Below, piece after piece: positions 5,624-42,384 of a stretch of 64,000 nt of DNA. The position numbers and the translations under genes are program-made. Every line of letters starts with the position of its first letter. Within the stretch, counting starts at the first letter, position 1. The notes below the pieces were generated by a model. It was not told where the DNA came from. It made no database searches and worked only from the letters and a program-made list of their open reading frames with translations. This stretch comes from Spirochaetia bacterium (GTDB lineage: Bacteria; Spirochaetota; Spirochaetia; CAKZLE01), in the NCBI GenBank assembly GCA_021736385.1, contig JAIPFY010000006.1, positions 869 to 64,868 on the forward strand, read 5' to 3'.

Positions 5624-5627
5624 TCTC

Positions 5628-5985
5628 TGGAGGTGGCGGGAATCGAACCCGCGTCCTACTGGGCCGTTACATGACGTCTACAAGCTTATTCCCATGTGTT
5701 GTTTCACGATACCTTAGCCACAGGACCAACTGCAGTATCGCTACGCCGAAATGGTGTCCCTTTCATAACGTCGGTATATATGAAGGTGAGTCCTGGAAGT
5801 GTTACAGATGACGTTGAATTCAGGACTGCGTCCAACGTATCCGTTACAGCGTTACTACGCTGCTAAAGCAAAAGATGCTTCGTTGTTTTCTTCAGCAATT
5901 AAATAAATGCCCTGTTTAAGGAGTTTGACGACTCCGCTGCAACCATGTAACCAACAATCCAATAGTCGAAACCAGTGCACCCCCC
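5628..5985 (-). ncRNA. ssrA: tmRNA (transfer-messenger RNA)
   Basis: The 3' end ...GUAGGACGCGGGUUCGAUUCCCGCCACCUCCA matches E. coli ...GGACGCGGGUUCAACUCCCGCCAGCUCCA. The 5' end GGGGGUGCACUGGUUUCGAC matches E. coli GGGGCUGAUUCUGGAUUCGAC. The acceptor stem pairs 5' GGGGGUG with 3' CACCUCC. An internal tag frame reads GCU GAA GAA AAC AAC GAA GCA UCU UUU GCU UUA GCA GCG UAG UAA, giving AEENNEASFALAA followed by two stops. Its partner smpB lies immediately upstream. Confidence 0.85.
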
Positions 5986-16297: not shown

Positions 16298-17391
16298 GCG
16301 AAGAGAACATCATGTACAGAATAGAGAGCTCGCCTCAGATCCGACATGCCGATTCGACTGCCCGCATCATGTGGTCTGTCGTCCTGGCGCTGCTGCCGGC
16401 GGGTATATGGAGTGTGGTCAATTTCGGCCCCTATGTGCTGGCGGTGATCGCAGTCTCTGTCATCACCGCAGTGGTGCTGGAGTACCTGCTTGCCCGACTG
16501 ATGGGGAGATCGACCATACAGGACGGCAGTGCCGTACTTACCGGTCTGCTGATAGCCTACAACATGCCCCCTGGAGTGGGGCTGTTCATACCGATCATCG
16601 CTTCCGCCTTCGCCATCGCCGTGGTGAAGTGGAGTTTCGGTGGTCTCGGGGCGAACTGGATCAACCCGGCTCTTGCCGGAAGGGTCTTCGTCTTCTTCTC
16701 CTGGACAGGAGCCATGACCACCTGGAAGGCTCCGCGATTCTGGAGTGCCGTCGATACGACCTCGGGAGCCACTGTGCTCTCTACCGTGAAGACCTCCCTG
16801 CTCGATGCAGAGGGGATCATCAGCGGACCTGCCGGTCTGCTCGGTGACCTTGGGTATCAAAGTACCGCGTTCGCCCGACAGGCCGCCTCCTGGTTCTCCG
16901 ATACGCTGAACATCGGCGTATCACCGATCCATATCGACCTGTTCATCGGGACGGTCCCCGGATCCCTCGGAGAGGTCTCAGCACTGCTGCTGATCCTCGG
17001 CGGGATCTATCTTGCTGCGAAACATATCATCACCTGGCATACCCCGATCTCCTATATCCTCTCCTTCAGCCTTCTGATCTGGATCTTCGGCGGTGTGCAG
17101 TATGGTACCGGTCTGTTCTCAGGTGATGTACTCTTTCACCTGTTCAGCGGCGGCATGATGCTCGGAGCATTGTTCATGGCAACCGATATGGTCACCAGTC
17201 CGACGACCTATGCGGGTATGATCATCTTCGGCATCTTCACGGGATTTCTCACCTTCCTCTTCAGGATCTACGGGTCTCTTCCCGAAGGTGTCTCTCTTGC
17301 GATCATTATCATGAACATCTTCGTACCCATGATCGATCGCTATATCCAGCCCAGAAGATTCGGCGTGGTGAAACAGAGGAGTCAGGCATGA
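16294..17391 (+). CDS. rnfD: Rnf complex subunit D
   Basis: Starts at MSEENIMY within ORF 16204..17391, with an ATGA overlap onto the rnfC stop. NqrB/RnfD-family polytopic membrane protein carrying the covalent-FMN motif region SGAT. Confidence 0.9.
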   Translation: MSEENIMYRIESSPQIRHADSTARIMWSVVLALLPAGIWSVVNFGPYVLAVIAVSVITAVVLEYLLARLMGRSTIQDGSAVLTGLLIAYNMPPGVGLFIPIIASAFAIAVVKWSFGGLGANWINPALAGRVFVFFSWTGAMTTWKAPRFWSAVDTTSGATVLSTVKTSLLDAEGIISGPAGLLGDLGYQSTAFARQAASWFSDTLNIGVSPIHIDLFIGTVPGSLGEVSALLLILGGIYLAAKHIITWHTPISYILSFSLLIWIFGGVQYGTGLFSGDVLFHLFSGGMMLGALFMATDMVTSPTTYAGMIIFGIFTGFLTFLFRIYGSLPEGVSLAIIIMNIFVPMIDRYIQPRRFGVVKQRSQA

Positions 17392-17942
17392 AACAAATGA
17401 TATCAATCGGATCCCGGCTGGCGATCATCTGCGCCGTCTCGGCCATCGTGCTGGCGCTGGTGAATTCCATCACCGCACCGAAGATCGCCATCTATCAGGA
17501 GCAGCTGGTGCAGCAGGCACTCTCTGAAGTCTCGAGCGGGTATACCGTCGGAGAGAAACAGAGTGCTGATGCACAGCAGATCAACTACTATCATCCTCTC
17601 ACAGACGGTGATACGGTAGTAGGCTATGTGATCAATCTCACCGCAGCAGGCTACGGCGGGCCCATGACCATGCTCGCCGGTTTCTCGACAGCGGGTGAGA
17701 CCCTCGCTGCGAAACTCATCCAGAACAGCGAGACTCCCGGACTGGGAAAGAAAGCTGAATCGAGTGAGTACATGCAGATGTTCGTCGGTACCGGCGGCAG
17801 TACGACACTGCCGATAAAGAAATCGGATCTTCCGGATGCTGCTGCTGATTCGATCAGTGGTGCGACCATCACCTTCAGCGGAGTCGCAAAGGCTCTGCTC
17901 GCCGGCTCGCAATTCGCCATCGAACTGGGAGGTATGCGATAA
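17388..17942 (+). CDS. rnfG: Rnf complex subunit G (FMN-binding)
   Basis: N-terminal TM helix. ETPGLG and the SISGATIT FMN-attachment motif are present. Confidence 0.85.
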   Translation: MKQMISIGSRLAIICAVSAIVLALVNSITAPKIAIYQEQLVQQALSEVSSGYTVGEKQSADAQQINYYHPLTDGDTVVGYVINLTAAGYGGPMTMLAGFSTAGETLAAKLIQNSETPGLGKKAESSEYMQMFVGTGGSTTLPIKKSDLPDAAADSISGATITFSGVAKALLAGSQFAIELGGMR

Positions 17943-18559
17943 TGTGGAAAGAACTTACCAAGGGGATCTTCAAGGAGAACCCCATATTCATCATCGTACT
18001 CGGACTCTGTCCCGCTCTGGGGGTCTCGACCCAGGTCGTCAATGCTCTGGGCATGGGTGCCGGTGTCATCTTCGTGCTCGTGAGTTCGAACATCTTCGTC
18101 TCCCTGCTCAAGGATTTTATCCCGAACAAGGTGAGGATACCTGCATACATCGTGATCATCGCATCGTTCGTCACGATCGTCGAGATGGTCATGCATGCCT
18201 ATGCACCATCGCTGTTCAAGAGCCTCGGGGTCTTCGTCCCCCTGATCGTCGTGAACTGTCTGATCCTCGGAAGGGCAGAGGCGTTCGCGAACAAGAACAC
18301 GGTCTGGTCCTCGATCCTTGATGCGATCGGTATGGGGATCGGCTTCACCTTGAGCCTGATCCTCATCGCACTGATCCGCGAGGTGTTCGGCTCGGGAACG
18401 ATAACCCTGTTCGCCATGGGAGATTTTGACGGTGTCATCCGTATACCGGTCCTGTATGCAGCACCTATGAGAGTACTGAGCCTGTCAGCAGGAGCCCTGC
18501 TGGTCATGGGATATCTAAAAGCATTCTTCAACTGGTATGCTTCACGAGGGAGGGCTTGA
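17942..18559 (+). CDS. rnfE: Rnf complex subunit E
   Basis: NENPIFIIVLGLCPALGVSTQVVNALGMG is a hallmark of the RnfE/NqrD family. Confidence 0.9.
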   Translation: MWKELTKGIFKENPIFIIVLGLCPALGVSTQVVNALGMGAGVIFVLVSSNIFVSLLKDFIPNKVRIPAYIVIIASFVTIVEMVMHAYAPSLFKSLGVFVPLIVVNCLILGRAEAFANKNTVWSSILDAIGMGIGFTLSLILIALIREVFGSGTITLFAMGDFDGVIRIPVLYAAPMRVLSLSAGALLVMGYLKAFFNWYASRGRA

Positions 18560-18563
18560 TCAG

Positions 18564-19154
18564 ATGTCATATATCGCAATCATCATAACATTCGTATTCA
18601 TCAACAACTTCATCCTGACTCAGTTTCTCGGTCTGTGCCCGTTCATCGGGGTATCGAAGAACATCGAGTCAGCCGTCGGTATGGGATTCGCCGTGACCTT
18701 CGTCATGGCGATAGCCTCTGTGGTGACCTGGCTGGTCTACTACTATATTCTCATCCCCCTCGGATTGACCTACCTGCAGACGATCACCTTCATCCTGGTC
18801 ATCGCATCGCTGGTCCAGCTCGTGGAGATGATCGTGCAGAGAATATCACCGCCGCTGTATAAGGCCCTTGGTATCTTCCTGCCTCTGATCACCACCAACT
18901 GCGCCGTACTCGGTATCGCATTGATCAATGTCACCAGTTCGTACAACCTGCTCGAAAGCTTCATCGCCGGCATCTCCGCCGGTCTCGGTTTCCTGCTCGC
19001 TATCGTACTGATGGCGAACATCAGGGAGAGACTTGAACTCGAACAGGTTCCCAAACCCTTCAAAGGAGTCCCTATCGCCTTCATTTCCGGAGGACTGATG
19101 GCACTTGCCTTCATGGCATTCGATAAGGCCCTTCTGACGAATCTACTAGGATAG
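18564..19154 (+). CDS. rnfA: Rnf complex subunit A
   Basis: Starts at MSYIAIII within ORF 18537..19154. FLGLCPFIGVS is a hallmark of the RnfA/NqrE family. Confidence 0.9.
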   Translation: MSYIAIIITFVFINNFILTQFLGLCPFIGVSKNIESAVGMGFAVTFVMAIASVVTWLVYYYILIPLGLTYLQTITFILVIASLVQLVEMIVQRISPPLYKALGIFLPLITTNCAVLGIALINVTSSYNLLESFIAGISAGLGFLLAIVLMANIRERLELEQVPKPFKGVPIAFISGGLMALAFMAFDKALLTNLLG

Positions 19155-19162
19155 GTGTAAAG

Positions 19163-19969
19163 ATGATATTAAACATACTATATGCGTTTCTGACTGTCTC
19201 GATCCTCGGAGGCGCTCTGGGCATCGGCCTGGCGTACGCATCGAAGAAGCTGGCAGTCAAAAAAGATGAGCGGGTGGAGGCTGTAGAAGAGGCCCTGCCC
19301 GGAGCGAACTGCGGAGCCTGCGGGTATGCAGGCTGTGCCGCATACGCAGAGGCCATCGTGAACGAAGAGGCTGACATGACCCTCTGTGCTCCCGGTGGTC
19401 CTGATACTGCTGCCAAGGTGGCTGCGATCATGGGTGTAGAAGCACAGGGCGGCAATGCGAAGAAGATGGTCGCCCGGGTCCACTGCTACGGGAACGAGGA
19501 GACCACCACGAAAGCGTTCGCCTATGAAGGACTGCAGGATTGTAATGCGGCCTACGCGATGTTCAAAGGTGATAATGGTTGTAAGTACGGTTGTCTGGCT
19601 CTGGGCAGCTGTATCGCCGTCTGTCCGGTGAATGCGATCACCAAACGTGAAGATGGCAGGATATATGTCGACAAAGATGTTTGCATTAGTTGCCGAAAAT
19701 GTGTTACTGTCTGTCCTACCGGAGTCATGAAGATGATCCCGTATGATGCGGAGTACTATATCGCCTGTAATTCAAAGGATAAGGGCGGTGCGGTCAAGAA
19801 AGTCTGCAGCGTCGGGTGCATCGGTTGTAAGATATGTGAGAAGAAGTTCCCTGATGCAGGGTTCACCGTCAAAGATTTTCTTTCTGAGATCGATTATACC
19901 ATCGCAGCACAGGGACAGGATGGGGCAGCTGCCGCCTGTCCGGTAGACTGCATACGGGTGACGGACTAA
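19163..19969 (+). CDS. rnfB: Rnf complex subunit B (polyferredoxin)
   Basis: N-terminal TM helix, the CGACGYAGC cluster, and several CxxCxxCxxxCP ferredoxin motifs. Confidence 0.85.
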   Translation: MILNILYAFLTVSILGGALGIGLAYASKKLAVKKDERVEAVEEALPGANCGACGYAGCAAYAEAIVNEEADMTLCAPGGPDTAAKVAAIMGVEAQGGNAKKMVARVHCYGNEETTTKAFAYEGLQDCNAAYAMFKGDNGCKYGCLALGSCIAVCPVNAITKREDGRIYVDKDVCISCRKCVTVCPTGVMKMIPYDAEYYIACNSKDKGGAVKKVCSVGCIGCKICEKKFPDAGFTVKDFLSEIDYTIAAQGQDGAAAACPVDCIRVTD

Positions 19970-19994
19970 GATAAGAAGAAGGTACCAGTACTAT

Positions 19995-21896
19995 ATGGGT
20001 CAAAAGAAGTTGATACTTGGTTTCTATGATCAGAAACCATTGGGAACCAGATTGGAAGATTATGAATTCAGCCTGTACTCGTGTTATAAACCTCTTTTGA
20101 CCTATCTCTACACGAATCCGGAGATCCGGATCGCTCTCTATCTCTCGGGGACCATCTATGAATGGCTCGAGAGTGATTACCCTGAGATAAACATGCTGAT
20201 CTCTGATATGGTCAAGCGAAAGCAGATCGAACTGCTTACCGGGGGCTTCTATGACCCGATCCTTCAGATCATCCCGAATAAGGACCGGACCCTTCAGATA
20301 GAGATGACTACCACGCTGCTGCGCAAGCGCTTCGGCTACCGGCCGCGCTGCGGGTGGATCAGTGAACAGGTATGGAACCCGGTACTGATCAATACCCTCT
20401 CGTTATGCGGCATCAAGAGTATGATCCAGTTTCATACCAGTGTCAGGGAGAACCCCTACTATATGCAGGAGATGGGTAAGACCATAACCATCTTCCCGGT
20501 AGACACCGCCCTCAGCACTGCTCTGCTGGGTAATGCACTCGATGAGTTTCATCATCTTATCTCGATAAAGGCGAAAAAGGAGTCTGTGTCTCATATCACG
20601 CTCATGCTCGATATGAACAAGATCATCTCCAACTCCATCATCGAGACCAAGAACAATATCGTCGAGCTGTGCAAGGTGTTCAAAGATACCTGTGAGATGT
20701 ATGAGATGACATCAGCACTTATCACAGATGAGACCTTCGAGGAGCCGATCGTGCAGGACTATCTGCCCTACGGCTGGTACAAGGATCAGAATACCCAGAA
20801 CACCGTACATTTCAACGAACTGTTCATCAAGTACCCTGAGATCCAGCGTCTGTACGGGAAGCTCCTGTTCGTGTCGCGATTGATCCCCGGGATCAAAAAA
20901 GAGAAATCACTGAAGAAGCTGGCGATCAAGGAACTGCTGAAGGCTGAATCGTTCGGCGGATTCTCGATCTCCCAGAATGGCGGGATGTATCAGAACTACC
21001 TGAGAAAACGCAACTATCACCATCTGATCGAAGGGGAGAAGATCTCACGGGAGAAAGGGGTCTTCTCTACCTCCATCACGATGTATGACATGGATCTTGA
21101 TACCGAGGATGAGGTGATCTACCGGGGGAAGAACATCACTACCGTCTTTGATCGTATCGGCGGGTCCATGATCGAACTGGACTATCTGGTGAATTCCTGG
21201 AACTATCTCGATACCTTCGTCGGTCATAGCGATGATCTGACTCGCAGAAGCATCCCCTCCATGCCCGATGGTATCTGTCAGAACACCTTCACTGATCTGT
21301 TCGTCTATCCTGAAGCACAGAGTGCCTGTTATGATAAATATTCGGATGCAGGGGTCCTGACCCTCGAAGGCGAGAGCTATGAGCTCGGGAGATTCGACAA
21401 AGACAAGAAACAGGTGGCCTTCTCCTTCACCACCACCGGTCTGACAGGCATCGACTCGATCGAGATCGAGAAGCTCTATACCTGTCATACCAATACCATC
21501 CAGGTGGATTATCGTATCAGGAACTGCGGCAGGACCAGAGTACAGTGCAAGTTCGGTTCAGAGCTGAATCTTTCGTTTTCCGGTGATACCGATGACCTGG
21601 TCGAATTCCATTCATCTGATGCCAATCATGTCAAGAAGATGGGACCGCAGGAGTTCACCATGAAGAACGTCAAACAGCTGCGTATCTCTGATCTGAACAA
21701 GAAAGCGATGGTATCCATCCTGGCAGAAAAACGGTATCATATGATCAGGCAGAACTACTCGACTACCATCAGTACCCTGATGGGCGAAGAGGATATCTAT
21801 CAGTTCACCCGTATCCTGCCGCTGTGGGAGCTGGATCTCAGACCTGGAGAGCAGTGGGAGAATCAGATAGCCATACGAATCGAGAAATTACGATAA
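19995..21896 (+). CDS. Glycoside hydrolase family 57-like protein (alpha-amylase/4-alpha-glucanotransferase fold)
   Basis: IELLTGGFYDPILQIIPNKDRTLQIEMT..GYRPRCGWISEQVW aligns with the GH57 block EILGSAYAHAILPLIPKD..RLQIRLG..GIKPKGFWLPECAY. The N-terminal HxHQP box is replaced here by YDQKP. Confidence 0.55.
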   Translation: MGQKKLILGFYDQKPLGTRLEDYEFSLYSCYKPLLTYLYTNPEIRIALYLSGTIYEWLESDYPEINMLISDMVKRKQIELLTGGFYDPILQIIPNKDRTLQIEMTTTLLRKRFGYRPRCGWISEQVWNPVLINTLSLCGIKSMIQFHTSVRENPYYMQEMGKTITIFPVDTALSTALLGNALDEFHHLISIKAKKESVSHITLMLDMNKIISNSIIETKNNIVELCKVFKDTCEMYEMTSALITDETFEEPIVQDYLPYGWYKDQNTQNTVHFNELFIKYPEIQRLYGKLLFVSRLIPGIKKEKSLKKLAIKELLKAESFGGFSISQNGGMYQNYLRKRNYHHLIEGEKISREKGVFSTSITMYDMDLDTEDEVIYRGKNITTVFDRIGGSMIELDYLVNSWNYLDTFVGHSDDLTRRSIPSMPDGICQNTFTDLFVYPEAQSACYDKYSDAGVLTLEGESYELGRFDKDKKQVAFSFTTTGLTGIDSIEIEKLYTCHTNTIQVDYRIRNCGRTRVQCKFGSELNLSFSGDTDDLVEFHSSDANHVKKMGPQEFTMKNVKQLRISDLNKKAMVSILAEKRYHMIRQNYSTTISTLMGEEDIYQFTRILPLWELDLRPGEQWENQIAIRIEKLR

Positions 21897-21933
21897 GCAG
21901 GTGTAGCACATGATACACCAAAAGGAGAACACT

Positions 21934-23029
21934 ATGCTGAATGACTATACACTGCGGCTGGAAGCCGTTGAGAAGGAAACGCTTGATACCTGGGGGCGAC
22001 TTTGACCCGGATTCGAAGCAACAGAGACTCGAAGAACTGGAGAAGCTGACACAGGACCCGTCGTTCTGGAATGACAAGGAGACTGCAGAGAAGACCTATG
22101 CTGAGATCGCTTCTATCAGGGATGAGCTGGAACCCTGGAATGATATCATCGCACAGATCGCGGAGACCAGAGAGTTCCTGATGCTCCTCGAAGAGGAGTT
22201 CGATGAACAGACTGCACAGGATGTCGGTGCGACCCTCGAGACGATCGAGACCCGTTTCGAACAGTTGAAGATCGCTTCCCAGCTGCATGAGATCTATGAC
22301 AGGAACAATGCCTTCATGACCATCCACTCAGGTGCAGGAGGGACAGAGGCCTGTGACTGGGTTCATATGCTGCTGCGCATGTATACCCGATGGTCTGAGA
22401 GAAGTGAGTTCACGCTGAAGATCCTCGATATGCTCGAAGCCGAGGGAGGGATCAAGTCGGTGACCGTACAGCTTGACGGTAAGCATGCCTACGGCTATCT
22501 CAAAGGCGAGAGCGGCATCCACCGGCTGGTCCGTATCTCACCGTTCGATCAGCAGAAGCGCAGACACACCTCATTCGCATCGGTCTTCGTCTCCCCGGTG
22601 ATCGAGGAAGACATCGATGTCACGATCAAGCCGGAAGATATCCGAGTCGATACCTACAGAGCTTCCGGTGCCGGCGGGCAGCATGTCAACAAGACTGATT
22701 CAGCGGTACGCCTCACCCATCTCGAATCAGGGATCGTGGTGCAGTGTCAGAATGAGCGAAGTCAGCACAAGAACAGGGCCATGGCCATGAAGGTGCTGAC
22801 CTCCAGACTGTATGAGTATTACCGACAGCAGAATGAGGAAGAGCAGTCAAAGCATTCCATGGAGAAGAAAGAGATCTCCTGGGGGCATCAGATCAGATCC
22901 TATGTGTTCCAGCCGTACACCATGGTCAAGGATCACAGGACTGGACTGCAGATCGGTAATATCCAATCGGTCATGGATGGGAATATCGATCCCTTCATCG
23001 AAGCATATCTGACATGGAGAATAGAGTAG
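21934..23029 (+). CDS. prfB: Peptide chain release factor 2, made by a programmed +1 ribosomal frameshift
   Basis: Frame 0 reads ATG..MLNDYTLRLEAVEKETLDTWGRL then TGA at 22003-22005. The shift site is GGGGG CGA CUU UGA C, the canonical Shine-Dalgarno-like GGGGG followed by CUU UGA C. The +1 frame then continues DPDSKQQRLEELEK... and contains SPF, GGQHVNKTDSAVRLTH. The ORF track (21941..23029) captured only the +1-frame portion. Confidence 0.9.
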
Positions 23030-24207
23030 TCTCCCACAGGCAGCTGCTGCTGGTGCACATCGTACTCCTGATGTGCATCATGGCTGCTGCCGGGGCACAG
23101 CAGGCACCCCGTACCGGGCTGCTCCCGATCTTCAGTCGGCAGACTGAAGACCAGCGTAGCCTGGAACTGCTGTATACCGATCATATCTACGAACAGGTAT
23201 ACCGTCGTGCCGCTGACCTGTTCACCAGTGAAGCCTTTTCCCGCATCTATCACTCAGAAGACCAGGGCCCTGCACAGGAGCTGGTCCCCCTGTACGATGA
23301 AGGGCAGGCTCTGTTCACCGACGAGCTCCTCTTCTCTCTTGATCAGCCCCCTGTGGCCGCCTATATCATGAAGCGGTATGACCTGGAACAGCTGGTCTAT
23401 GGGCGTTTTCGTACCATAGATTCGGTATCGATCATCGAACTCTTCCTCATGGGAGAGGATGCTCAGCCCGAACGGATCTATTCCCGGATCATCACTGCAG
23501 AACAGCTTCCTGTGGTCACCGAAGAACTGCTTATCACGCTGGTGGAGCGCTTGACCGGGAAGCAGACCGGTGCACTGAGCATCTCCGGCTCCCCTCAAGA
23601 TATGCTCAGCCTCCAGATCGACGGGTTGACGGTCTCTGTTGACGATACGGTCCTGCAGGTCCTGCCCTACAGCTCCTATAGAATCGATATCAGGCTGCAG
23701 GGCCGTACGATCGACAGCACCACGGTGCTCATCGATCAGGATCGGCAGCAGCTTGCCGTGAGACTGCAGGAGCCGGTCACCGAACAGTACTATATCTCAT
23801 CGCTGCCGGGAGGGGCCTCATTATACGTCGAGGCAGAACCGATCGGTACCTCAGGGATGCTCTACACGTTCGACAGCGCCCAGGACCGGCTCCTGACTGC
23901 AGAGCTCCCAGGGTACATCCCTGAACATATCAGGTTGTCAGAAGCAGCCCCTGGGGAACTCACGATCGCTCTCCGACCCGATTGGATGAGCCGTACCAGC
24001 CAGATCGAGGTGGGAAAACGTGCATGGTATTCCTCATTAGGAGTATGTATTGCTTCATTGCCTATTTCAATTCTATCAAAGTTTTTATATGATACCACAG
24101 GTGATCCTCTCTGGAAGCTCACCTACGGTGTCGGTGTGAGTTTGAACATCACTTCAGCGATGGTATCCCTGAGAGATCTTATTGATTACTACCATCGAAT
24201 AGATTAA
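23014..24207 (+). CDS. Hypothetical membrane protein: N-terminal signal/TM anchor, periplasmic domain, C-terminal TM hairpin
   Basis: A 397-aa ORF whose start overlaps the prfB stop. It has an N-terminal hydrophobic segment and a C-terminal WYSSLGVCIASLPISILSKFLY...VGVSLNITSAMVSL TM pair. I recognise no family. Confidence 0.45.
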   Translation: MENRVVSHRQLLLVHIVLLMCIMAAAGAQQAPRTGLLPIFSRQTEDQRSLELLYTDHIYEQVYRRAADLFTSEAFSRIYHSEDQGPAQELVPLYDEGQALFTDELLFSLDQPPVAAYIMKRYDLEQLVYGRFRTIDSVSIIELFLMGEDAQPERIYSRIITAEQLPVVTEELLITLVERLTGKQTGALSISGSPQDMLSLQIDGLTVSVDDTVLQVLPYSSYRIDIRLQGRTIDSTTVLIDQDRQQLAVRLQEPVTEQYYISSLPGGASLYVEAEPIGTSGMLYTFDSAQDRLLTAELPGYIPEHIRLSEAAPGELTIALRPDWMSRTSQIEVGKRAWYSSLGVCIASLPISILSKFLYDTTGDPLWKLTYGVGVSLNITSAMVSLRDLIDYYHRID

Positions 24208-24234
24208 CACAGCATATAAAAGGAATCGGTATCT

Positions 24235-25104
24235 ATGAAAAACTTCTTCGGTAAACGCATAGCCTCCCTGTTCAGCAGGAATGTCATGGATGAGAGCTTC
24301 TTCGAAGAGCTTGAAGATACGCTCATCGAAGGGGATCTCGGAACACAGATCACCTTCGATCTCTCTGAGCACATCCGCAGGATCGTAAAGAAACAGCGAT
24401 TGGATCAAAGCGGCATGCTCCTTGAGATGAAGGCGCTGCTCGAGCCGTACGTCAGTACCATCGATCTCTCCATCCCGAAGCAGGACACGCCGATGATCTT
24501 TCTGGTGCTGGGCGTCAACGGTGTCGGGAAGACGACATCTATCGCAAAGATGTCACACTGGTACCAGAAGCAGGGATACACTACGGTCCTCAGTGCCGCA
24601 GATACCTTCAGGGCTGCTGCGATCGATCAGCTGTCACTGCATGCTCAGCGGCTGGGGACCAGGATCGTCAAACAGTCCCCGGGATCTGATCCCGGTGCGG
24701 TCATCTTCGATTCCATCGACAGCGCGATCGCACGGAAAGAGCAGCTGATCCTCGCTGATACCGCCGGCAGGATGCATACCAAAGAGCATCTGCTCAGAGA
24801 GCTGCAGAAGATCGACAAGATCGTCGCAGCCAAACTGCCCGGAGCTAACTACAAGAAGATCCTGGTCATCGATGCGACGACCGGACAGAATGGTGTCAGA
24901 CAGGCTGAGCTGTTCCATGAGACCGTGGGACTCGATGCCATCGTGCTGACCAAGTATGATTCAGCCTCCAAAGGCGGGAGCATCATCCAGATCGGGAAGA
25001 ACCTTCATATACCCATAGCTTTCGTGGGAGTCGGGGAGGGGTATGATGATATCATGCCTTTCGATCGGGATACGTTCCTCAATACGCTCATAGGATTGGA
25101 ATGA
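24235..25104 (+). CDS. ftsY: Signal recognition particle receptor FtsY (short form, NG domain only)
   Basis: GVNGVGKTTSIAKM, DTAGR and TKYD..KGG GTPase motifs. Confidence 0.9.
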   Translation: MKNFFGKRIASLFSRNVMDESFFEELEDTLIEGDLGTQITFDLSEHIRRIVKKQRLDQSGMLLEMKALLEPYVSTIDLSIPKQDTPMIFLVLGVNGVGKTTSIAKMSHWYQKQGYTTVLSAADTFRAAAIDQLSLHAQRLGTRIVKQSPGSDPGAVIFDSIDSAIARKEQLILADTAGRMHTKEHLLRELQKIDKIVAAKLPGANYKKILVIDATTGQNGVRQAELFHETVGLDAIVLTKYDSASKGGSIIQIGKNLHIPIAFVGVGEGYDDIMPFDRDTFLNTLIGLE

Positions 25105-26156
25105 ACATCCGACAGGCTGCAGGGATCCTGCTGCTGCTCAGTCCCGCTGTCTTCGCAGCGGAGGATACCTACTATATCTCGAACTCGATCGGTCAGGACG
25201 TCGAACGTATCTCTGAAGTGGATCTGTATGATCCTGCGACAGCCTCCGGCTATATCCTCAAACACTCGGCAGCTGACGAACAGAAGAGCATACGGACGTT
25301 GAGCAGAAACAGGGAACCACTCTGGGAAGAGGTCAGGACTGACAGGGGGGTCCATACCCATATCCTTCGGACTGACCCGGAGGGGAACATCCTGCAGGAG
25401 AGTCACTATACCAATGGGTTGATCACCAGTGAACACATCAGTACCGGTGGGGTCACGATCGAGACCGATTATCAGTATACCCCAAGATCCAGGCTGAGCA
25501 GCACGCTGCAGCACAGCGGGGAGGGCTCTGCCCGAACCCGCTACTTCATCGGTGATTCTGGGGGACTCTCTGGTCTCATGATCGAGAGGACCGATGGGCA
25601 GCAGGAACTGCTCGAGCAGATCGTACTGTTCGATCGGTCAGCAGGGACTGCTGCGATCGGTACCAGTGATGCCTACCGGATGACAATCACCCGGGAGGAT
25701 GAACTTCTGATATATGAATACCGGCAGGGAGACCTGATCTATCAGGAGATCAGAGCCGAAGGGGATGACGGCTTTCAGAGGATCGATTCCTATGACCACC
25801 TGCTCGACAGGTCCCGCCGGCAGCTCATCGATACGGCCTCAGGTCTGATCGTACAGGAGACCATCGGTTCGAAGGATGTCCCGGACGTGCGTCTGATGAC
25901 CTATGACTATGATCCGCAGGGGCGGCTGATGACCAAAGTGGTGCTGCAGGATGAGAAGCGAACCGTGCATGAGTACGAGTATGTGGATGAAGAGACTGTT
26001 GAAACGATCGGTATTGATGGTATAGTGAATAAGATCATCACCTATGAGCGAACAGGGGAGCGGAACGAACAGCTCTATCTTGATGGCGTGTTCTATGCGA
26101 CTGTTCACTACGGTGAGGACAATACGATACTGAAGGTGACCTATGCCGATGAATAG
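25101..26156 (+). CDS. Secreted protein with YD/RHS-like repeats (hypothetical)
   Basis: Signal peptide ILLLLSPAVFA|AE. Repeated beta-hairpin-like segments include a clear YD motif, LMTYDYDPQGRLMTKV, and LLIYEYRQGDLIYQEI. Its start overlaps the ftsY stop (ATGA), and its end overlaps the start of the downstream permease. Confidence 0.5.
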   Translation: MNIRQAAGILLLLSPAVFAAEDTYYISNSIGQDVERISEVDLYDPATASGYILKHSAADEQKSIRTLSRNREPLWEEVRTDRGVHTHILRTDPEGNILQESHYTNGLITSEHISTGGVTIETDYQYTPRSRLSSTLQHSGEGSARTRYFIGDSGGLSGLMIERTDGQQELLEQIVLFDRSAGTAAIGTSDAYRMTITREDELLIYEYRQGDLIYQEIRAEGDDGFQRIDSYDHLLDRSRRQLIDTASGLIVQETIGSKDVPDVRLMTYDYDPQGRLMTKVVLQDEKRTVHEYEYVDEETVETIGIDGIVNKIITYERTGERNEQLYLDGVFYATVHYGEDNTILKVTYADE

Positions 26157-27393
26157 AGAGGGAACGAGCTCTTCGTGGCTCATGTTCGTCATGCACAGAT
26201 ATCTCACGGGAAGAAGCAACAGACGCTATATGTCTTCGCTGTTCACGATCATGGGCATCACCATCGGCTTCATCACCATCTTCGTGATCATCGGTATCAT
26301 GAACGGACTGCAGAGTGGTTATCTGGAAGATCTCATCGAGATCCAATCCTTTCATCTGCAGATATCAGTTGACGATCAGACCGATCCTCTTGCCATACGA
26401 TCGGCTGTCCTGTCCCATCCAGGGGTATCCTCTGCCGTGCAGTATCTCGATACCAACGCGCTGCTCGAATATGGAGACCGGCAGTACTACCCCTGCATCC
26501 TGCGGGGAGTCGAAGATGACATCTTCACCACCGATGAGGGGTTCCTCGAACATACCTCTCTTGATGACGGATCGATCACACGACTGGGCGTGCGGGAACT
26601 GATCGTCAGTGATCATATGAGACAGATGCTCTATGCCATCCCGGGAAGTACCATGAACATGATGCTCATGGGAGTGGGGAAAGTGGTCCCTCACGTTCCC
26701 ATCACCTTCGAGAGTTCCATCGCCGGAATCTACCGCAGTGACTTCCCCGATATCGATTCAGGCTTCATCTTCACCTCTCTGGAGACCCTCAAGCTCCTTC
26801 TGCCCCAGCAGAGACCTCTGCTCGGGATTAAGCTCACCGACCTCGATACGCTGGAAACGACGGCCGAAGATCTGGCTCTGATCACGGGAGTCGAGACGGT
26901 CACGACCTGGAAGGAGGCCAACGAGTCCTTCTATGCTGCACTGATGATCGAGAAGTATGGTATGATGCTGCTGCTCAGTCTGATCTTCCTGGTGGTGATC
27001 ATGAACGCCAAGACCTCCTTCGAGAAGTATGTCTTCCATAAGAAGGATGACATAGGTATCCTTCGCTCTCTTGGAGCATCACGGGGGGAGGTCTATACGA
27101 TCTTTCTGCTGCAGGGCTCTCTCATCGTCCTCACAGGCATCCTGCTTGGTTCTCTGCTGGGGTATCTTACCGCATACCATATCAATGAGATCATTCGAGC
27201 CGGAGAACGGCTGCTGAACTTCCTGTTCGACCGAAGGATGGTCTTTCTGACCTATACCTTCCCGGTGGTCATCGAGATCAGAGAGATGTTCGCGGTAGGG
27301 ATCGCCATCCTTCTGCTGTCGATCACCAATATGTACTTCGCTGTTGCGACCCTCGTGAAAAAATCACCATTGGAGATCTTGTGGTATGAATGA
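26143..27393 (+). CDS. FtsX-family ABC transporter permease (LolC/E or MacB-like)
   Basis: N-terminal TM helix, a large periplasmic domain and a C-terminal 3-TM FtsX domain, LRSLGASRGEVYTIFLLQG. Confidence 0.8.
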   Translation: MPMNREGTSSSWLMFVMHRYLTGRSNRRYMSSLFTIMGITIGFITIFVIIGIMNGLQSGYLEDLIEIQSFHLQISVDDQTDPLAIRSAVLSHPGVSSAVQYLDTNALLEYGDRQYYPCILRGVEDDIFTTDEGFLEHTSLDDGSITRLGVRELIVSDHMRQMLYAIPGSTMNMMLMGVGKVVPHVPITFESSIAGIYRSDFPDIDSGFIFTSLETLKLLLPQQRPLLGIKLTDLDTLETTAEDLALITGVETVTTWKEANESFYAALMIEKYGMMLLLSLIFLVVIMNAKTSFEKYVFHKKDDIGILRSLGASRGEVYTIFLLQGSLIVLTGILLGSLLGYLTAYHINEIIRAGERLLNFLFDRRMVFLTYTFPVVIEIREMFAVGIAILLLSITNMYFAVATLVKKSPLEILWYE

Positions 27394-28078
27394 CCAGACA
27401 GAACCGGCAATCGATGCGAAAGCAGTGAACAAATCCTATGTAAGCGGTGATACCCATCTGCATGTCCTGAACACTGTGGATTTCTCCCTCTCCAAAGGAG
27501 AGTCTGCAGTCATACTTGGTAAGAGCGGCAGCGGTAAGAGCACCTTCCTGCACCTGCTCGGCGGGTTGGACACGGTCGATTCAGGGTCACTGCAGGTTGC
27601 AGGCAGACAGCTCGAGCTGCTCAAAGAGCGTGGGCTCGAACGATTTCGTCGCACCTGTATCGGCTTCATCTTCCAGTCCCATTATCTGCTTGATGATTTC
27701 ACGCTCCTGGAGAATGTGTATCTGCCGGCGGTCATGAGCGGATTTCCCAAGAAGGAGTCCATCGAGTCTGCAAAACAGCTGATCTCTCAGGTCGGATTGT
27801 ATGATCGAAAGGATCATTTCCCCAGGCGGATCTCAGGCGGGGAGCGGCAGCGGACGGCGGTAGCCCGTGCGTTGATCAATGAACCCGAATTGATCCTGGC
27901 AGACGAACCGACGGGGAATCTTGATGAGTATAACTCCCGGATCGTGGAGGATCTGCTCTTCTCCCTGGTAGAGACCTATGCACGATCGATGGTCCTGGTG
28001 ACCCACGATATCAGCATGAGGTTCCGCGGCACGCAGTCCTATGAACTGTATCTGGGGAAACTGGAGCCATACGTATGA
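27386..28078 (+). CDS. ABC transporter ATP-binding protein (LolD/MacB type)
   Basis: GKSGSGKST Walker A, the [15 protein letters not shown] signature, and [11 protein letters not shown]. Confidence 0.9.
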
Positions 28079-29298
28079 TCGGCTCAGGCGGATCGCTGTT
28101 CTGGTCGCTTCGGATCCTCGGGATCGGGGCGACCGGGAAGAGGACTCGAAAGAAACATATCATGAGTGCGGTGACCGTGGTCGCACTGTCGGTGATCCCC
28201 CTGATCATTGCCATGTTCCTGGTGAACGGGATGACCATCGGTATCACCAGAAAATATATCAATCTTTCGAGCTTCCATGCCCAGGTATACGGTGTGACCG
28301 ATCCTGCAGCCTTTGCAGCAGAAGCTGAGAAGCTCGAGGGTGCAGCTGAAGCTTTTGAGATCAGGGAAGCCTACAGTCTGCTCTATTCTCAGAACGGATC
28401 CTACACTACCGTGGTCAAAGCTGCTGAAGCTGCATACTACGACTCCCCTGCATTTCAGGATGAGCTCAGCTTCATCGCTGGCTCCTCGTCTTTCTCCTCT
28501 CGTGCTTCGATCATGATCAGCGAGACCATCGCGAATGAACTGGAGGTGACCATCGATGATACGATCGCGGTGGTCACTGTGACCCAGCAGATGGGAGAGA
28601 CCCGACTGAAACCTGCGATCTTTCTTGTCACAGGCATATTCGCCTCCGGCTACAAACAACTCGATGCACAACTGGCGTATGTGGATATCGATCAGTCGCA
28701 GCGCATCATGAAAGATGATAATCGGTGGTATATGGGCATATTGGCAGAACCGGGCTATGAGAACGACCTGCCCCAGCTGCGACGGAGCCTCATGGGACTC
28801 GTCGATGAGCAGGGCAGGGTCGTCTCCTGGGATCAGCTCAACCGAAGCCTCTACAGCAACTTCAGATCTTCAAAGACGATTCTCTATGTCATCATGATCC
28901 TGATCATCCTCGTTGCTTCGATCAATATCTCATCTACCTGTATCATCATCATACAGGAGAAGTATCTTGAGATCGGCATGCTCAAATCAGTCGGTGTCGA
29001 CAACCGTATCCTGCAGAGGACCTTCCTGTACACCTCCCTGCTCATAGGGACGATCGGTGCGGTGATCGGTATCAGCCTCGGTGTGCTCATCAGTCTGCAG
29101 CTGCAGCCTCTTCTGGTACTCCTGCAGGATCTGGGGGTCTCGGCACTGGATTTCTATCTCATCGACATCCCGGTGATCTTTCACTGGGATGAGATAGCCC
29201 TTGTAGGGATCATGACCATAGCGATCTCCGGATTATCATCGATCCTTCCGTTGAGAAGAGTCAAAAGTATGTTGCCGATACATCTGCTGCAGGAGTAG
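28075..29298 (+). CDS. FtsX-family ABC transporter permease (second permease)
   Basis: Same topology as 26143..27393, with the C-terminal FtsX domain MLKSVGVDNRILQRTFLYTSLLIG. Confidence 0.8.
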   Translation: MIGSGGSLFWSLRILGIGATGKRTRKKHIMSAVTVVALSVIPLIIAMFLVNGMTIGITRKYINLSSFHAQVYGVTDPAAFAAEAEKLEGAAEAFEIREAYSLLYSQNGSYTTVVKAAEAAYYDSPAFQDELSFIAGSSSFSSRASIMISETIANELEVTIDDTIAVVTVTQQMGETRLKPAIFLVTGIFASGYKQLDAQLAYVDIDQSQRIMKDDNRWYMGILAEPGYENDLPQLRRSLMGLVDEQGRVVSWDQLNRSLYSNFRSSKTILYVIMILIILVASINISSTCIIIIQEKYLEIGMLKSVGVDNRILQRTFLYTSLLIGTIGAVIGISLGVLISLQLQPLLVLLQDLGVSALDFYLIDIPVIFHWDEIALVGIMTIAISGLSSILPLRRVKSMLPIHLLQE

Positions 29299-29321
29299 GT
29301 TAGTATACATACAGAAGGAGT

Positions 29322-29939
29322 ATGAACCGAATGGATGGATTTTTCGATTTCATAGAACTCAGAGTCGATGAGAAGCGGCTCTCAGATGTCAAGATCTTCG
29401 GATTGGATCTGGAGACCACCGGTCTGGATGTGAACGCCAATGAGATCACTGAGATCGGTATCGCCGAGTATGAGCTTACCACACGGGAGATCTCTCCTGT
29501 GTATCAGTCGCTGGTACGACCGGAACAGGAGATACAGGACTTCATCACGAAGATCACCGGTATCAGGAACGAGGATGTTCTGCATGCTCCCGATATCTCC
29601 ATCATCGTCCAGGAATGCCTCCCGATCATCGAACATGGGGTGCTCGTCGTGCACAATGCTGATTTCGATATCGGATTTCTCAAGAAGTTCATCGGACAGG
29701 GGTTTCTCCAGGAGTACGACATCGCTGTCTTTGATACCCTGAAAATGAGCAGGCGACTGCTTGACCACAGTAGATATTCACTTGAGTATCTGGTAGAATC
29801 ACTGGGTCTCGGTCATGAGCAGCATCATCGGGCTATGGATGATGCCCGCATGTGTATCAAGCTGTTCGATCATCTGGTATACGCTCATCAAGAGAGATTC
29901 TCGCATACCATATCCCACATACTGCAGAGTTTTACATAG
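29322..29939 (+). CDS. DEDDh 3'-5' exonuclease (DnaQ / DNA polymerase III epsilon-like)
   Basis: Exo I FGLDLETTGLD, Exo II VVHNADFDIGFL and Exo III HRAMDDARM. Confidence 0.8.
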   Translation: MNRMDGFFDFIELRVDEKRLSDVKIFGLDLETTGLDVNANEITEIGIAEYELTTREISPVYQSLVRPEQEIQDFITKITGIRNEDVLHAPDISIIVQECLPIIEHGVLVVHNADFDIGFLKKFIGQGFLQEYDIAVFDTLKMSRRLLDHSRYSLEYLVESLGLGHEQHHRAMDDARMCIKLFDHLVYAHQERFSHTISHILQSFT

Positions 29940-29950
29940 GTGCATGACAG

Positions 29951-30877
29951 ATGAACTTAGAAGTATATATCCTTGGTACCAGCGGCATGATGCCGCTGCC
30001 AAACAGATTCCTTACCTCCGTACTGCTGCGTCGGGATGGTGAACTGCTCCTGTTCGATTGCGGAGAAGGGACTCAGGTCTCATTGAAGAAACTCAATCTG
30101 AAATGGAAGAAGATCAACCGTATCTTCATCAGCCACATGCATGCCGACCATGTGACCGGATTACCAGGTCTGCTCATGCTCTCAAGCCAGGTAGACCGGG
30201 AAGAACCGCTGCATATCTACGGTCCTGCCAGACTGGCAAGCTACATCGATGCAAACAGGAAGATCCTCGATATGTATATCAACTATGAGATCATCGTCCA
30301 TAGTGTAGAACCCGGGATCATCTATGAGCAGGAGGATTATCACATAGAGGCCTTCAGACTGCAGCATACCAAACCCTGCTATGGCTATAGCCTGGTAGAA
30401 CATGATCGACCGGGAAAGTTCCATCCTGAGAAAGCCCTCGAACTGGAGGTTCCCATGGGACCCCTGTGGGCTGTACTACAGGGTGGGAGAGAGATCAAGC
30501 TTCCCGATGGGAGAGAAGTACAGCCTCACGAGGTCCTCGGGGAGCCGAGAAAGGGGAGGAAGTTCTCCTTCGTCACCGATACGATGTATTTCAGAGAGAT
30601 CTCATCCTACGTCTCCGGTGCCGATTTTCTCGTATGTGAAGGGATGTTCGACAGTTCGCTGCAGGAGAGTGCGACCGATAAAAAACATCTGACCGCCCAT
30701 CAGGCAGGTGAGATCGCTCGGGATGCACAGGGGGTGAAGAAGATGGGATTGATCCATTACAGCCCCAGGTATACCGATAGAGAGCTCTTCCTCCTGCTCA
30801 ATGAAGCGCAGGAGGTATTCAAAGATACCATCCTCTGTCGTGATCAGGCCTTCTTTGACATCACCTATGAAGAATAG
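29951..30877 (+). CDS. rnz: Ribonuclease Z
   Basis: Metallo-beta-lactamase HxHxDH motif SHMHADHVTG, in the short-form RNase Z architecture. Confidence 0.9.
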   Translation: MNLEVYILGTSGMMPLPNRFLTSVLLRRDGELLLFDCGEGTQVSLKKLNLKWKKINRIFISHMHADHVTGLPGLLMLSSQVDREEPLHIYGPARLASYIDANRKILDMYINYEIIVHSVEPGIIYEQEDYHIEAFRLQHTKPCYGYSLVEHDRPGKFHPEKALELEVPMGPLWAVLQGGREIKLPDGREVQPHEVLGEPRKGRKFSFVTDTMYFREISSYVSGADFLVCEGMFDSSLQESATDKKHLTAHQAGEIARDAQGVKKMGLIHYSPRYTDRELFLLLNEAQEVFKDTILCRDQAFFDITYEE

Positions 30878-31899
30878 TACTGCTCATACTTGTTCACATC
30901 CGGTTCGAACCCGAGTATGCAGAACCGATCATCTTCCAGAGCCTTCTTGAAAGCCACTTCAGTCTCATAGAGAATAGTCTCTGAATCAACAAGACGGCTG
31001 AACTTACCGGTGAATCCGGCTCTGAAGGCGGTGGATCGCTGTTTGAGATCCGATTTCATCTGATCATACAGCCGGGTGAGCTCCTGTTCTGTCTCTGAGA
31101 AGGAGAAGAACGGCAGGACTACGGCAAAGGTGTTCTTGTACGGATAATCGAATACGAAGGCAGTCTCGGAGAAGAAGGATTCGATCGTCTCCTTGAATAC
31201 CATGAAATCAGAGGAGAACTTCTTCGGTTCGATGTTCAGCAGGATCATCGAGATCTCATATCTCTTCTCATTCGAGAATGTGACCTCTTCACGGAATCGT
31301 GTGTAGAAGTCATCCTTCTCCAGCGGAGTAGCTTCTTCAGAAGCGGTGAGCACTGAAGCGTAGACCTGCTGCCGCTTCTGAGGAGCATCACTCTGCTGTG
31401 TGTTCTCGTGTACCTCTGCAGGACTCTGAAGCGGTTCTTCCGGAGAAGTCGGTTCATTCTCAGAGAAGACCTGAGGAGCATTGAAGAAATCAAGCTCATC
31501 GGATGAGAGGTCTTCACTGTAGGGTTCATCACCGGAAGGGGTGCTCTCCTGTGGGACCTCCGCCTGTGCAGCCGGTGTCTCAGATCGTTTCTCGAGATCG
31601 GCACCGAAGATATCGAGGGAGTAGGTATGGTTCTGTTCGGTCTCAGCAGGAGCCGCCGAGGCTGTGGGACGCTGCCGATCCGATGATCTGGTCGCAAGCA
31701 GGATCACCGTAGCTAAGAACAGGACGAAGAACGACGGGAAGACCTTGTACAGGAACGGCAGATAGACATCTGCAGGAGCTGCAAGCAGTCCCCCGTAATG
31801 GATATAATACCGGTACACATGGATGATCGAATAGGATAGGAGCGCTACAAGCACCATTGATACTATCACTGTGAACGTCTCTTTTGTTTTACTGGCCAT
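30865..31899 (-). CDS. Membrane protein with a disordered acidic linker and a C-terminal degenerate GGDEF-like domain (hypothetical)
   Basis: Two N-terminal TM helices, then about 120 aa rich in S, P, E and T. The C-terminus AFVFDYPYKNTFAVVLP...RSTAFRAGFTGKFS...ILYETEVAFKKA resembles the RYGGEEF...SIGIA...LYxAK pattern of the GGDEF fold, with the GGDEF motif replaced. Confidence 0.4.
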   Translation of the reverse strand: MASKTKETFTVIVSMVLVALLSYSIIHVYRYYIHYGGLLAAPADVYLPFLYKVFPSFFVLFLATVILLATRSSDRQRPTASAAPAETEQNHTYSLDIFGADLEKRSETPAAQAEVPQESTPSGDEPYSEDLSSDELDFFNAPQVFSENEPTSPEEPLQSPAEVHENTQQSDAPQKRQQVYASVLTASEEATPLEKDDFYTRFREEVTFSNEKRYEISMILLNIEPKKFSSDFMVFKETIESFFSETAFVFDYPYKNTFAVVLPFFSFSETEQELTRLYDQMKSDLKQRSTAFRAGFTGKFSRLVDSETILYETEVAFKKALEDDRFCILGFEPDVNKYEQYYSS

Positions 31900-31901
31900 A
31901 C

Positions 31902-32477
31902 TTACTGTCCCTCTTTTCCAGAAAGTTCGTGGAATAGCGTCTGGAATATGCTGCTCTTTTGAACCTCTTCCCTCTGCTGATCGTTCAGGAGTGCGACCAT
32001 GCGCTGGATCTTCTTCAGTTCCTTGATCAGGCTCTCGACGGTTGCAGACTGACCCGGGGCACGCTCATTGAGCAGATCCTGCTCGAGTTCTTCCATGAAC
32101 AGCTCATCGGTGACCAGATTCGAGAAGGTCCCCTCATCAGTATCCTGTCCGGAGAAGATAGCTCCGTCTGAGACCTGTCGACCGTGTGTGTTGAAGAAAC
32201 TGTGATTCTTCTTCAGCTCCTGCAGTTCCTCTTCCAGGACGAACGTCTCATCTATATCGGCTGTGTCGTGTCGTTTGGTGTCACTGATGATCTCGGCGGC
32301 ATACTCCTGAGATTTTCTCTTGATATTCTTGATCAGGCTATCGAGCGATTCCAGATTGTCATCAGTACTGAAATCATGCTTGTGATGAGTATGTGCCGCT
32401 TCATCGATGTTTGACGAGTCGATCTTTTTGAACGTTCCGTACAGTCCCGGATAATTCTGTTTTTTACTTTTATACAA
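31902..32477 (-). CDS. Hypothetical acidic protein
   Basis: A 191-aa ORF ending 3 nt before the start of 30865..31899. No recognisable motif. Confidence 0.4.
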   Translation of the reverse strand: MYKSKKQNYPGLYGTFKKIDSSNIDEAAHTHHKHDFSTDDNLESLDSLIKNIKRKSQEYAAEIISDTKRHDTADIDETFVLEEELQELKKNHSFFNTHGRQVSDGAIFSGQDTDEGTFSNLVTDELFMEELEQDLLNERAPGQSATVESLIKELKKIQRMVALLNDQQREEVQKSSIFQTLFHELSGKEGQ

Positions 32478-36836: not shown

Positions 36837-36910
36837 GCCACCTTAGCTCAGCTGGCCAGAGCACGTGACTTGTAATCTCGGGGTCCTCGGTTCGAATCCG
36901 AGAGGTGGCT
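36837..36910 (+). tRNA. tRNA-Thr (anticodon TGT)
   Basis: GCCACCT..AGGTGGC acceptor stem, GCTC/GAGC D-stem, CTTGTAA anticodon loop, CTCGG-TTCGAAT-CCGAG T-arm. CCA is not encoded. Confidence 0.8.
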
Positions 36911-36958
36911 GATTGACATTTTTTATGTTTTTTGTTACGTTACTGTGACAGCAATTCT

Positions 36959-37040
36959 GGGGAGGTTCCCGAGTGGCCAAAGGGGGCAGACTGTAAATCT
37001 GTTGGCGTTGCCTTCGAAGGTTCGAATCCTTCTCTCCCCA
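36959..37040 (+). tRNA. tRNA-Tyr (anticodon GTA), type II with a long variable arm
   Basis: GGGGAGG..TCTCCCC acceptor stem, ACTGTAAAT anticodon loop, GTTGGCGTTGCC variable arm, GAAGG-TTCGAAT-CCTTC T-arm. Confidence 0.85.
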
Positions 37041-37075
37041 AAAGCCTTCCTTAATTGGAAGGCTTTTTCTTTCTT
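37041..37075 (+). terminator. Rho-independent terminator after tRNA-Tyr
   Basis: The hairpin agccttcc-ttaatt-ggaaggct followed by TTTTTCTTTCTT. Confidence 0.6.
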
Positions 37076-42030: not shown

Positions 42031-42375
<345 letters not shown>

Positions 42376-42384
42376 TTATTTATT

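Follow-up and report, generated by a model that had tools for sequence, protein, structure and literature searches.

The DNA analysed here is a 64,000-nucleotide (nt) stretch from a Spirochaetia bacterium (assembly GCA_021736385.1, contig JAIPFY010000006.1), called the window below. Our subject is a string of genes in it, in which ftsY, encoding the receptor of the signal recognition particle (SRP), is followed by a gene for a small secreted protein that we call X and by three genes of an ATP-binding cassette (ABC) transporter. An earlier note on this DNA had described these as five co-directional, overlapping genes, and all open reading frames (ORFs) and overlaps were confirmed. Treating them as a five-gene unit proved too narrow, however: the conserved block is larger, begins at prfB and includes a PEGA-domain membrane protein. 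Its features in the window, with positions counted from the first nucleotide, are as follows.

21933-23029, + strand: prfB, release factor 2 (Pfam PCRF and RF-1), first gene of the conserved block
23014-24207, + strand: U397, a membrane-anchored, periplasm-exposed protein of 397 amino acids (aa), whose gene overlaps the prfB stop by 16 nt
24235-25104, + strand: ftsY, SRP receptor, short form of 289 aa (TIGR00064; Pfam SRP54 and SRP54_N)
25101-26156, + strand: X, secreted 351-aa protein of YD/RHS-type beta-hairpin repeats
25101-25163, + strand: signal peptide of X, about residues 1-21, MNIRQAAGILLLLSPAVFAA/E, signal peptidase I (SPase-I) type, no lipobox cysteine
25170-25205, + strand: N-terminal motif of mature X, YYISNSIGQDVE (family consensus Y-x-S-N-x-x-G-x-x-L-E)
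25999-26026, + strand: match to a sigma-70-like consensus within the 3'-terminal part of X, about 115 nt 5' of permease 1
26143-27393, + strand: permease 1, LolC/LolF-like type VII ABC permease
27386-28078, + strand: LolD-like ABC ATPase (Pfam ABC_tran)
28075-29298, + strand: permease 2, LolE-like, an old paralogue of permease 1

The U397 stop lies 27 nt 5' of ftsY, and from there on every junction overlaps: ftsY/X by 4 nt (ATGA), X/permease 1 by 14 nt, permease 1/ATPase by 8 nt and ATPase/permease 2 by 4 nt. If the second ATG (26149) is the start of permease 1, its overlap with X shrinks to 8 nt. The true start of prfB is the ATG at 21933; because the gene contains a programmed +1 frameshift site with the canonical heptamer CTTTGAC at 22000, read from the sequence, the mechanical ORF list begins prfB at 21941, in the second frame. 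Neither an Rfam element nor a tRNA was found within the block, nor any terminator-like site on the + strand between 21.9 and 31 kb. The genes of the block are probably co-transcribed, and through the overlap of start and stop codons (translational coupling) X would be made at a set ratio to the permeases. The statement that there is no room for internal promoters was too strong, since promoters can sit in coding sequence and the sigma-70-like match inside X (TTGAAA-16-TATAGT with TG, 10 of 12 positions) leaves room for one as far as sequence can tell. By its agreement with the consensus, this match is a possible internal promoter; overall, 20 such matches were observed against 12.9 ± 3.8 in shuffled sequences, which is no clear enrichment.

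A genome scan anchored on permease 1 yielded 80 loci, the spirochete ones being labelled Spirochaetales, Spirochaetaceae, Treponema, Treponemataceae, Rectinemataceae, Sphaerochaeta or Spirochaetia. Both ftsY and permease 1 were present in 41 spirochete loci, and in 41/41 of these the two genes share one strand and a single ORF of 270-400 aa lies in the interval of about 1 kb that separates them. A profile made from X and the homologues recovered by an exhaustive search was run on the 5,102 ORFs of the scanned loci and matched 45 of them, all at the position between ftsY and permease 1: 39 belong to the 41 loci with both flanks, and six to loci whose contig stops before ftsY. The two of the 41 loci that fall outside the profile have a positional equivalent with a signal peptide. 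The synteny across spirochetes that the earlier note had proposed to check was thus borne out, with an X homologue in the expected place in 39 of 41 loci. The junctions are also conserved, as overlaps occur at ftsY/X in 25 of 38 loci (median gap -4 nt), at X/permease 1 in 40 of 44 (median -4), at permease 1/lolD in 42 of 46 (median -8, as in Escherichia coli lolC/lolD) and at lolD/permease 2 in 41 of 45 (median -4). Conservation of order and of overlapping junctions in about 45 species-level spirochete genomes is beyond chance, and we hold the gene anatomy and its conservation with high confidence.

Wherever the scanned flank was long enough, prfB and a U397 homologue lie 5' of ftsY, giving a conserved block of the order prfB, PEGA protein (U397), ftsY, X, permease 1, lolD and permease 2. 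The same order is found in the cultured species Gracilinema caldarium and Alkalispirochaeta sphaeroplastigenens, whose gene calls are independent of ours; a 342- or 343-aa protein without a Pfam match occupies the X position, and mcsA-mcsB-clpC stand 3' of the block in place of the exonuclease and RNase Z (rnz) genes of the window. The block has thus kept its order in changing surroundings. As a scan anchored on a permease is biased, the contigs carrying the three X homologues with the greatest divergence in the exhaustive search were also looked up, and each homologue is flanked by the C-terminus of FtsY and/or the N-terminus of permease 1. A metagenome scan anchored on X, made with a six-sequence alignment, returned the same organism and one close relative only.

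Protein X belongs to a family that is not covered by any Pfam or NCBIfam model. A word-indexed search with X matched only X itself, and one with the 42-sequence profile gave at least six matches; the homologues came from an exhaustive phmmer search of 1.84 billion representatives, which found 13 proteins at E <= 1e-3, all of 337-381 aa. The family is restricted to spirochetes, rare and fast-evolving, with a mean pairwise identity among orthologues of 0.24, compared with 0.51 for FtsY. An N-terminus with the n-h-c organization of SPase-I substrates is present in 42/42 aligned members, without a consistent lipobox. The best-conserved element outside the repeats is the consensus motif just past the signal peptide, which is missing from a shorter subclade of about 315 aa.

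The AlphaFold2 (AF2) model of X, built with a 15-sequence alignment, is all-beta with strands that reach the C-terminus, and has a predicted local distance difference test score (pLDDT) of 91 that is low at residues 1-20. Its fold matches are YD/RHS shells and OspA-like sheets, with low template modelling scores of 0.2-0.3, so that its overall shape is a different one. Sequence profiles also point to such repeats: Pfam RHS_repeat (PF05593) matches 18 of 42 family members (best 2.5e-13), the window X itself scoring 21 bits, just below the cut-off of 22, and the family profile finds the repeat regions of Rhs proteins and teneurins in the PDB at E 2e-15 to 1e-12. Database labels on relatives read 'YD repeat-containing' or 'RHS repeat domain-containing'. 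Mature X has about 330 residues, an isoelectric point of 4.6, a grand average of hydropathy of -0.64 and no cysteine; it is polar, has no hydrophobic face, and its strands are weakly amphipathic. Our results show that X is a Sec-exported, soluble, acidic periplasmic protein of about 14 YD/RHS-type beta-hairpins.

Tandem YD (RHS) beta-hairpin repeats are shared with the Rhs effectors of type VI secretion systems, the BC components of Tc toxins and the teneurins. The shells of Rhs and Tc BC proteins exceed 600 residues, however, whereas X with 351 aa is estimated to be too short for a closed shell; X also differs from them in being Sec-exported and in having no N-terminal plug or PAAR domain, no RHS-core aspartyl protease motif and no toxin. 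X gave no NCBIfam RHS-core match, and no toxin or additional domain was found in it. The periplasmic roles suggested in the earlier note fit this protein poorly. A LolA-like role is at odds with a confidently modelled fold of YD/RHS and OspA-like type that is polar and lacks the hydrophobic cavity of LolA/LolB, which are unclosed beta-barrels with a lid, and a MacA-like adaptor role with the absence of a membrane-fusion-protein fold from the model. As X has its own Sec signal peptide, it is also unlikely to be a substrate of the exporter.

Several comparisons bear on the identity of the ABC system. Permease 1 matches Pfam FtsX and MacB_PCD, and permease 2 matches FtsX only. The best NCBIfam family for both is TIGR02212 (lolCE), with 173 bits for permease 1 and 150 bits for permease 2 against a cut-off of 362, while the NCBIfam FtsX models give 23-33 bits against cut-offs of 225-255. 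The best PDB sequences for permease 1 are LolF, LolC and LolE, matched over the full length and with LolF chains on top, and that for permease 2 is LolE (83 bits, full length); FtsX is absent among the PDB sequence matches of either permease. The ATPase scores 241 bits with TIGR02211 (LolD; cut-off 308) and 177 bits with FtsE (cut-off 265), matches LolD and FtsE in the PDB with 175 and 134 bits, and is 44% identical to LolD and 37% to FtsE of E. coli K-12. MacB appears among the weaker PDB matches of permease 2 and the ATPase, and Lol proteins outrank it for all three components. Both permeases consist of a first transmembrane helix (TM1), a periplasmic domain of about 220 residues (about residues 53-267 in permease 1 and 51-274 in permease 2) and three further transmembrane helices; the corresponding loop of E. 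coli FtsX has about 135 residues. The two permeases are 22% identical to each other (blastp). In a neighbour-joining tree, which is crude and without support values, each of them falls into a deep clade of its own, apart from a group of E. coli LolC with LolE, as would be expected if the permease duplication in spirochetes was independent of that of LolC/LolE. At the position of the LolC Hook (E. coli residues 167-179), both permeases have a segment of hairpin length without sequence conservation; the Hook hairpin recruits LolA, and its sequence is poorly conserved across phyla (PMC10865981).

These comparisons show the system to be, by homology, a transporter of the Lol type (type VII) that combines a LolD-like ATPase with two permease paralogues of ancient divergence. 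As the scores lie under the equivalog cut-offs, we name it Lol-type and do not regard it as proven LolCDE. In its architecture it matches the machinery that pulls mature lipoproteins out of the inner membrane. With E. coli LolCDE it shares the order permease, ATPase, permease, the 8-nt overlap of the first permease gene with lolD and the periplasmic domain between TM1 and TM2; it differs in that the spirochete permeases are 20-25% identical to those of E. coli and score below the equivalog cut-offs, and in that the operon is preceded by ftsY and X, whereas E. coli lolC-lolD-lolE lacks an X-type gene. The widespread, homodimeric LolDF system (lolF-lolD) resembles it in that LolF chains are the top structure matches of permease 1, and in that Gemmatimonadota loci have one permease gene with lolD, likewise 3' of prfB; in the spirochetes, however, lolD is flanked by two distinct permease genes. 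The Gemmatimonadota loci (among L041-L080 of our scan) consist of prfB, a class II (D/K/N-type) aminoacyl-tRNA synthetase gene of about 500 codons, a single permease gene and lolD; the synthetase is consistent with LysS, which Pfam does not separate from the Asp and Asn synthetases. As the linkage of prfB to lol genes occurs in two phyla, it arose before the insertion of U397, ftsY and X, which is specific to spirochetes.

Two proteins encoded 5' of X, U397 and FtsY, were also characterized. U397 of the window has no Pfam or NCBIfam match, and two of its segments, residues 4-32 and 337-360, are hydrophobic. In 24 loci, a homologue occupies the place between prfB and ftsY, and those of Gracilinema and Alkalispirochaeta (L081:4588-6084 and L082:3495-5003) score above the PEGA cut-off. 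By position, U397 is thus orthologous to the PEGA-domain proteins of relatives, and it is a fast-evolving, periplasmic, membrane-anchored protein; its single-sequence AF2 model was unusable (pLDDT 36). FtsY scores 314 bits with TIGR00064 (cut-off 260.7) and 227 bits with Pfam SRP54, in addition to matching SRP54_N, and is 46% identical to residues 293-496, the NG domain, of the 497-aa E. coli FtsY. It consists of an NG domain and a basic N-terminal segment, without the acidic A domain. This segment, MKNFFGKRIASLFSR, looks amphipathic and may be a membrane-targeting helix.

Type VII ABC systems have periplasmic partners, LolA in the case of LolCDE, EnvC in that of FtsEX and MacA in that of MacB. 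The reading that we favour is that of a conserved block of Spirochaetia for housekeeping and envelope biogenesis, in which X would be a lineage-specific periplasmic accessory of the Lol-type transporter; we consider the chances of this combined reading to be about even, and those of its narrower core, a functional partnership of X with the transporter, to be somewhat less than that. An accessory role is proposed because the X gene is fixed beside the first permease gene and usually overlaps it, because type VII ABC systems act on periplasmic partners, and because spirochetes are without LolB and their hand-off of lipoproteins is unresolved (PMC11326224, PMC11784454). In the periplasm, X could serve as a scaffold, or offer a docking surface, on the large domains that the permeases expose there; alternatively, it could act on the cargo or on the hand-off to LolA. 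A more specific form of the proposal, in which X, possibly together with U397, is a dedicated spirochete-specific component of lipoprotein trafficking that docks on the permease domains for cargo selection or hand-off, appears unlikely at present. As FtsY is cytoplasmic and X periplasmic, no direct contact between the two is implied. The linkage of ftsY would reflect a co-regulation of membrane-protein insertion with envelope assembly or an inherited operon structure, either of which is most likely preferable to a physical interaction of FtsY with the transporter.

Several observations weigh against a partnership of X with a lipoprotein transporter. The basis for it is the gene neighbourhood, and the sub-threshold Lol scores mean that a release of lipoproteins by this ABC system is itself something that we infer from homology. 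No lolA was found among the annotated genes of the 64-kb window. Overlap of genes is a habit of this genome and not special to the five genes, as 23 of the 49 same-strand neighbour pairs in the whole window overlap, and so overlap alone tells little; the five are cut arbitrarily from a longer string, in which 16 co-directional genes follow each other tightly, with gaps of at most 40 nt (14978-30877, rnfC to rnz): rnfCDGEAB, a GH57 glycosidase gene, prfB, U397, ftsY, X, the lol genes, a DnaQ-like exonuclease gene and rnz. One locus from a spirochete-labelled metagenome-assembled genome (L070, 9965-13288) has a divergent Lol-type trio in the order permease, permease, lolD, situated between a [FeFe]-hydrogenase/NuoF operon and ligA, with neither ftsY nor X beside it; the trio may be a second system or come from a lineage that broke the block. 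The earlier note had named ABC genes without the secreted gene as evidence against its proposal; this locus is in part such a case. The prfB-lol linkage in Gemmatimonadota suggests that part of the block is old operon inheritance and not functional coupling. Co-evolution was examined by the mirror-tree method, in which X correlated with the two permeases at partial rho 0.48 and 0.46 and with FtsY and LolD at 0.18 and 0.19. The control protein U397, however, correlated with the permeases more strongly than X did (0.75 and 0.79), and with U397 controlled for, the values for X and the permeases fell to 0.17 and 0.04. As the correlation of U397 is the stronger one, the signal between X and the permeases is non-specific and general to proteins exposed to the periplasm, and we rejected the mirror-tree result as evidence for a link. 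Either the four proteins with periplasmic parts form a co-evolving module, or a common rate dynamics of envelope proteins is the cause.

These points lend some weight to the explanation that X is an unrelated passenger, a periplasmic YD-repeat protein with a role of its own, for instance as a structural or binding protein of the envelope, that is kept between ftsY and the first permease gene by operon inertia in a compact housekeeping string. The 16-gene run mixes unrelated functions (rnf, GH57, prfB, ftsY, lol, exonuclease, rnz) in a genome where overlaps are frequent, the Gemmatimonadota have an unrelated aminoacyl-tRNA synthetase gene between prfB and the lol genes, the co-evolution signal does not single out X and the permeases, and the low identity among X orthologues is what would be expected of a weakly constrained protein. 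We nevertheless consider this explanation rather unlikely, though clearly more probable than the two that follow. The ftsY-X-permease arrangement is intact, with its overlaps, in about 45 species-level genomes of several families while the flanks vary, and unrelated passengers are usually lost or moved across such distances. Moreover, X was never found elsewhere, neither among the 5,102 ORFs nor in the look-ups anchored on X. If X were a passenger, it would still be a useful conserved synteny marker for Spirochaetia, and nothing beyond that.

LolCDE, MacB and FtsEX are all members of the type VII ABC superfamily, and the block could be a remodelled ftsY-ftsE-ftsX operon in which the ABC system is the spirochete equivalent of FtsEX, controlling a periplasmic effector by mechanotransmission instead of extracting lipoproteins, and X a partner of the EnvC/PcsB kind, as would suit systems that typically act on a periplasmic partner. 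In E. coli, ftsY likewise lies tightly and directly 5' of a type VII ABC system, with a 2-nt gap between ftsY and ftsE and an 8-nt overlap between ftsE and ftsX. The Borrelia burgdorferi genes BB_0080 and BB_0081, which by the Borrelia gene order may be orthologues of this cluster, have also been tabulated as homologues of FtsE and FtsX (PMC11185795). The spirochete transporter differs from the E. coli operon, however, in being Lol-type, in having two permeases and in having a gene for a secreted protein after ftsY. The FtsX models score far below their cut-offs and no FtsX structure is matched, the ATPase is nearer to LolD than to FtsE on every measure, the periplasmic domains have the size of those of LolC/E and not of FtsX, and X contains no EnvC fold, coiled coil, LytM, CHAP or other hydrolase-regulator domain. 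An FtsEX equivalent is therefore improbable in our view. The description of the gene context as non-canonical in the earlier note holds in part: ftsY beside a type VII ABC system is already found in E. coli, but the Lol-type transporter and the interposed X are lineage-specific. Least probable by far is an exporter of the MacB type with X as its adaptor or secreted substrate. The shared superfamily, the MacB_PCD match of permease 1 and the weaker MacB matches of permease 2 and the ATPase speak for it; against it, the ATPase is encoded by a separate gene and not fused to the permease as in MacAB-TolC, the block has no gene for an adaptor of the MacA fold or for a TolC-like duct, X lacks the membrane-fusion-protein fold and, with its own Sec signal peptide, needs no dedicated exporter, and Lol proteins rank above MacB throughout.

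Spirochetes, among them the agents of Lyme disease and syphilis, rely heavily on lipoproteins. LolA is documented in Borrelia and no LolB is known in spirochetes (PMC11326224), and the hand-on and sorting of their lipoproteins are described as unresolved (PMC11326224, PMC11784454). A recent review treats the permease-lolD-permease layout as exclusive to a subset of the gamma-Proteobacteria and speaks of LolDF in Borrelia (PMC11784454), so that the presumably corresponding Borrelia genes are named inconsistently in the literature, as FtsE/FtsX (PMC11185795) or as LolDF (PMC11784454). Searches with the model-organism locus tags TP0576-0582 and BB0074-0081, the presumed counterparts of the block, found no literature on the positions of X or U397. 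The components are of known kinds, namely FtsY, a Lol-type type VII ABC transporter and a YD-repeat protein. What is new, as far as the literature was searched, is the existence of the X family, a conserved spirochete block in which the gene of a small periplasmic YD-repeat protein separates ftsY from a Lol-type transporter with two permeases, and the permease-lolD-permease layout outside the gamma-Proteobacteria, in about 45 genomes of Spirochaetota (loci L001-L075). The X family is a concrete candidate for a missing component of the lipoprotein pathway; should X, possibly together with U397, have a role in trafficking, this would help to explain how spirochetes without LolB sort lipoproteins between periplasm and surface. 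Because the block is tied to the classical ftsY-ftsEX layout, it also bears on the evolution of type VII ABC operons.

The 16-gene array is an unusually long and compact housekeeping run. Its members next to the conserved block, on the same strand, are the following.

19995-21896, + strand: GH57 glycosidase, upstream of prfB
29322-29939, + strand: DnaQ-like DEDDh exonuclease, 23 nt after permease 2, outside the conserved block
29951-30877, + strand: RNase Z (rnz), 11 nt after the exonuclease, outside the conserved block

Further 5' of the array and on the same strand lie lepB, a hemN-like gene, yebC, ruvAB and queA. Directly 3' of rnz and convergent to it, two ORFs of 344 aa and 191 aa without a Pfam match occupy 30865-32477 on the - strand; the 344-aa product carries a membrane segment at its N-terminus, and a long stretch in its middle is acidic and of low complexity. 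Among the RNA genes of the window are a tmRNA (5625-5984) with the tag peptide AEENNEASFALAA, tRNA-Thr(TGT) and tRNA-Tyr(GTA) at 36837-37041, and a class A RNase P RNA (42033-42378, 294 bits), which is overlapped by a probably spurious 93-aa ORF (42061-42342, - strand).

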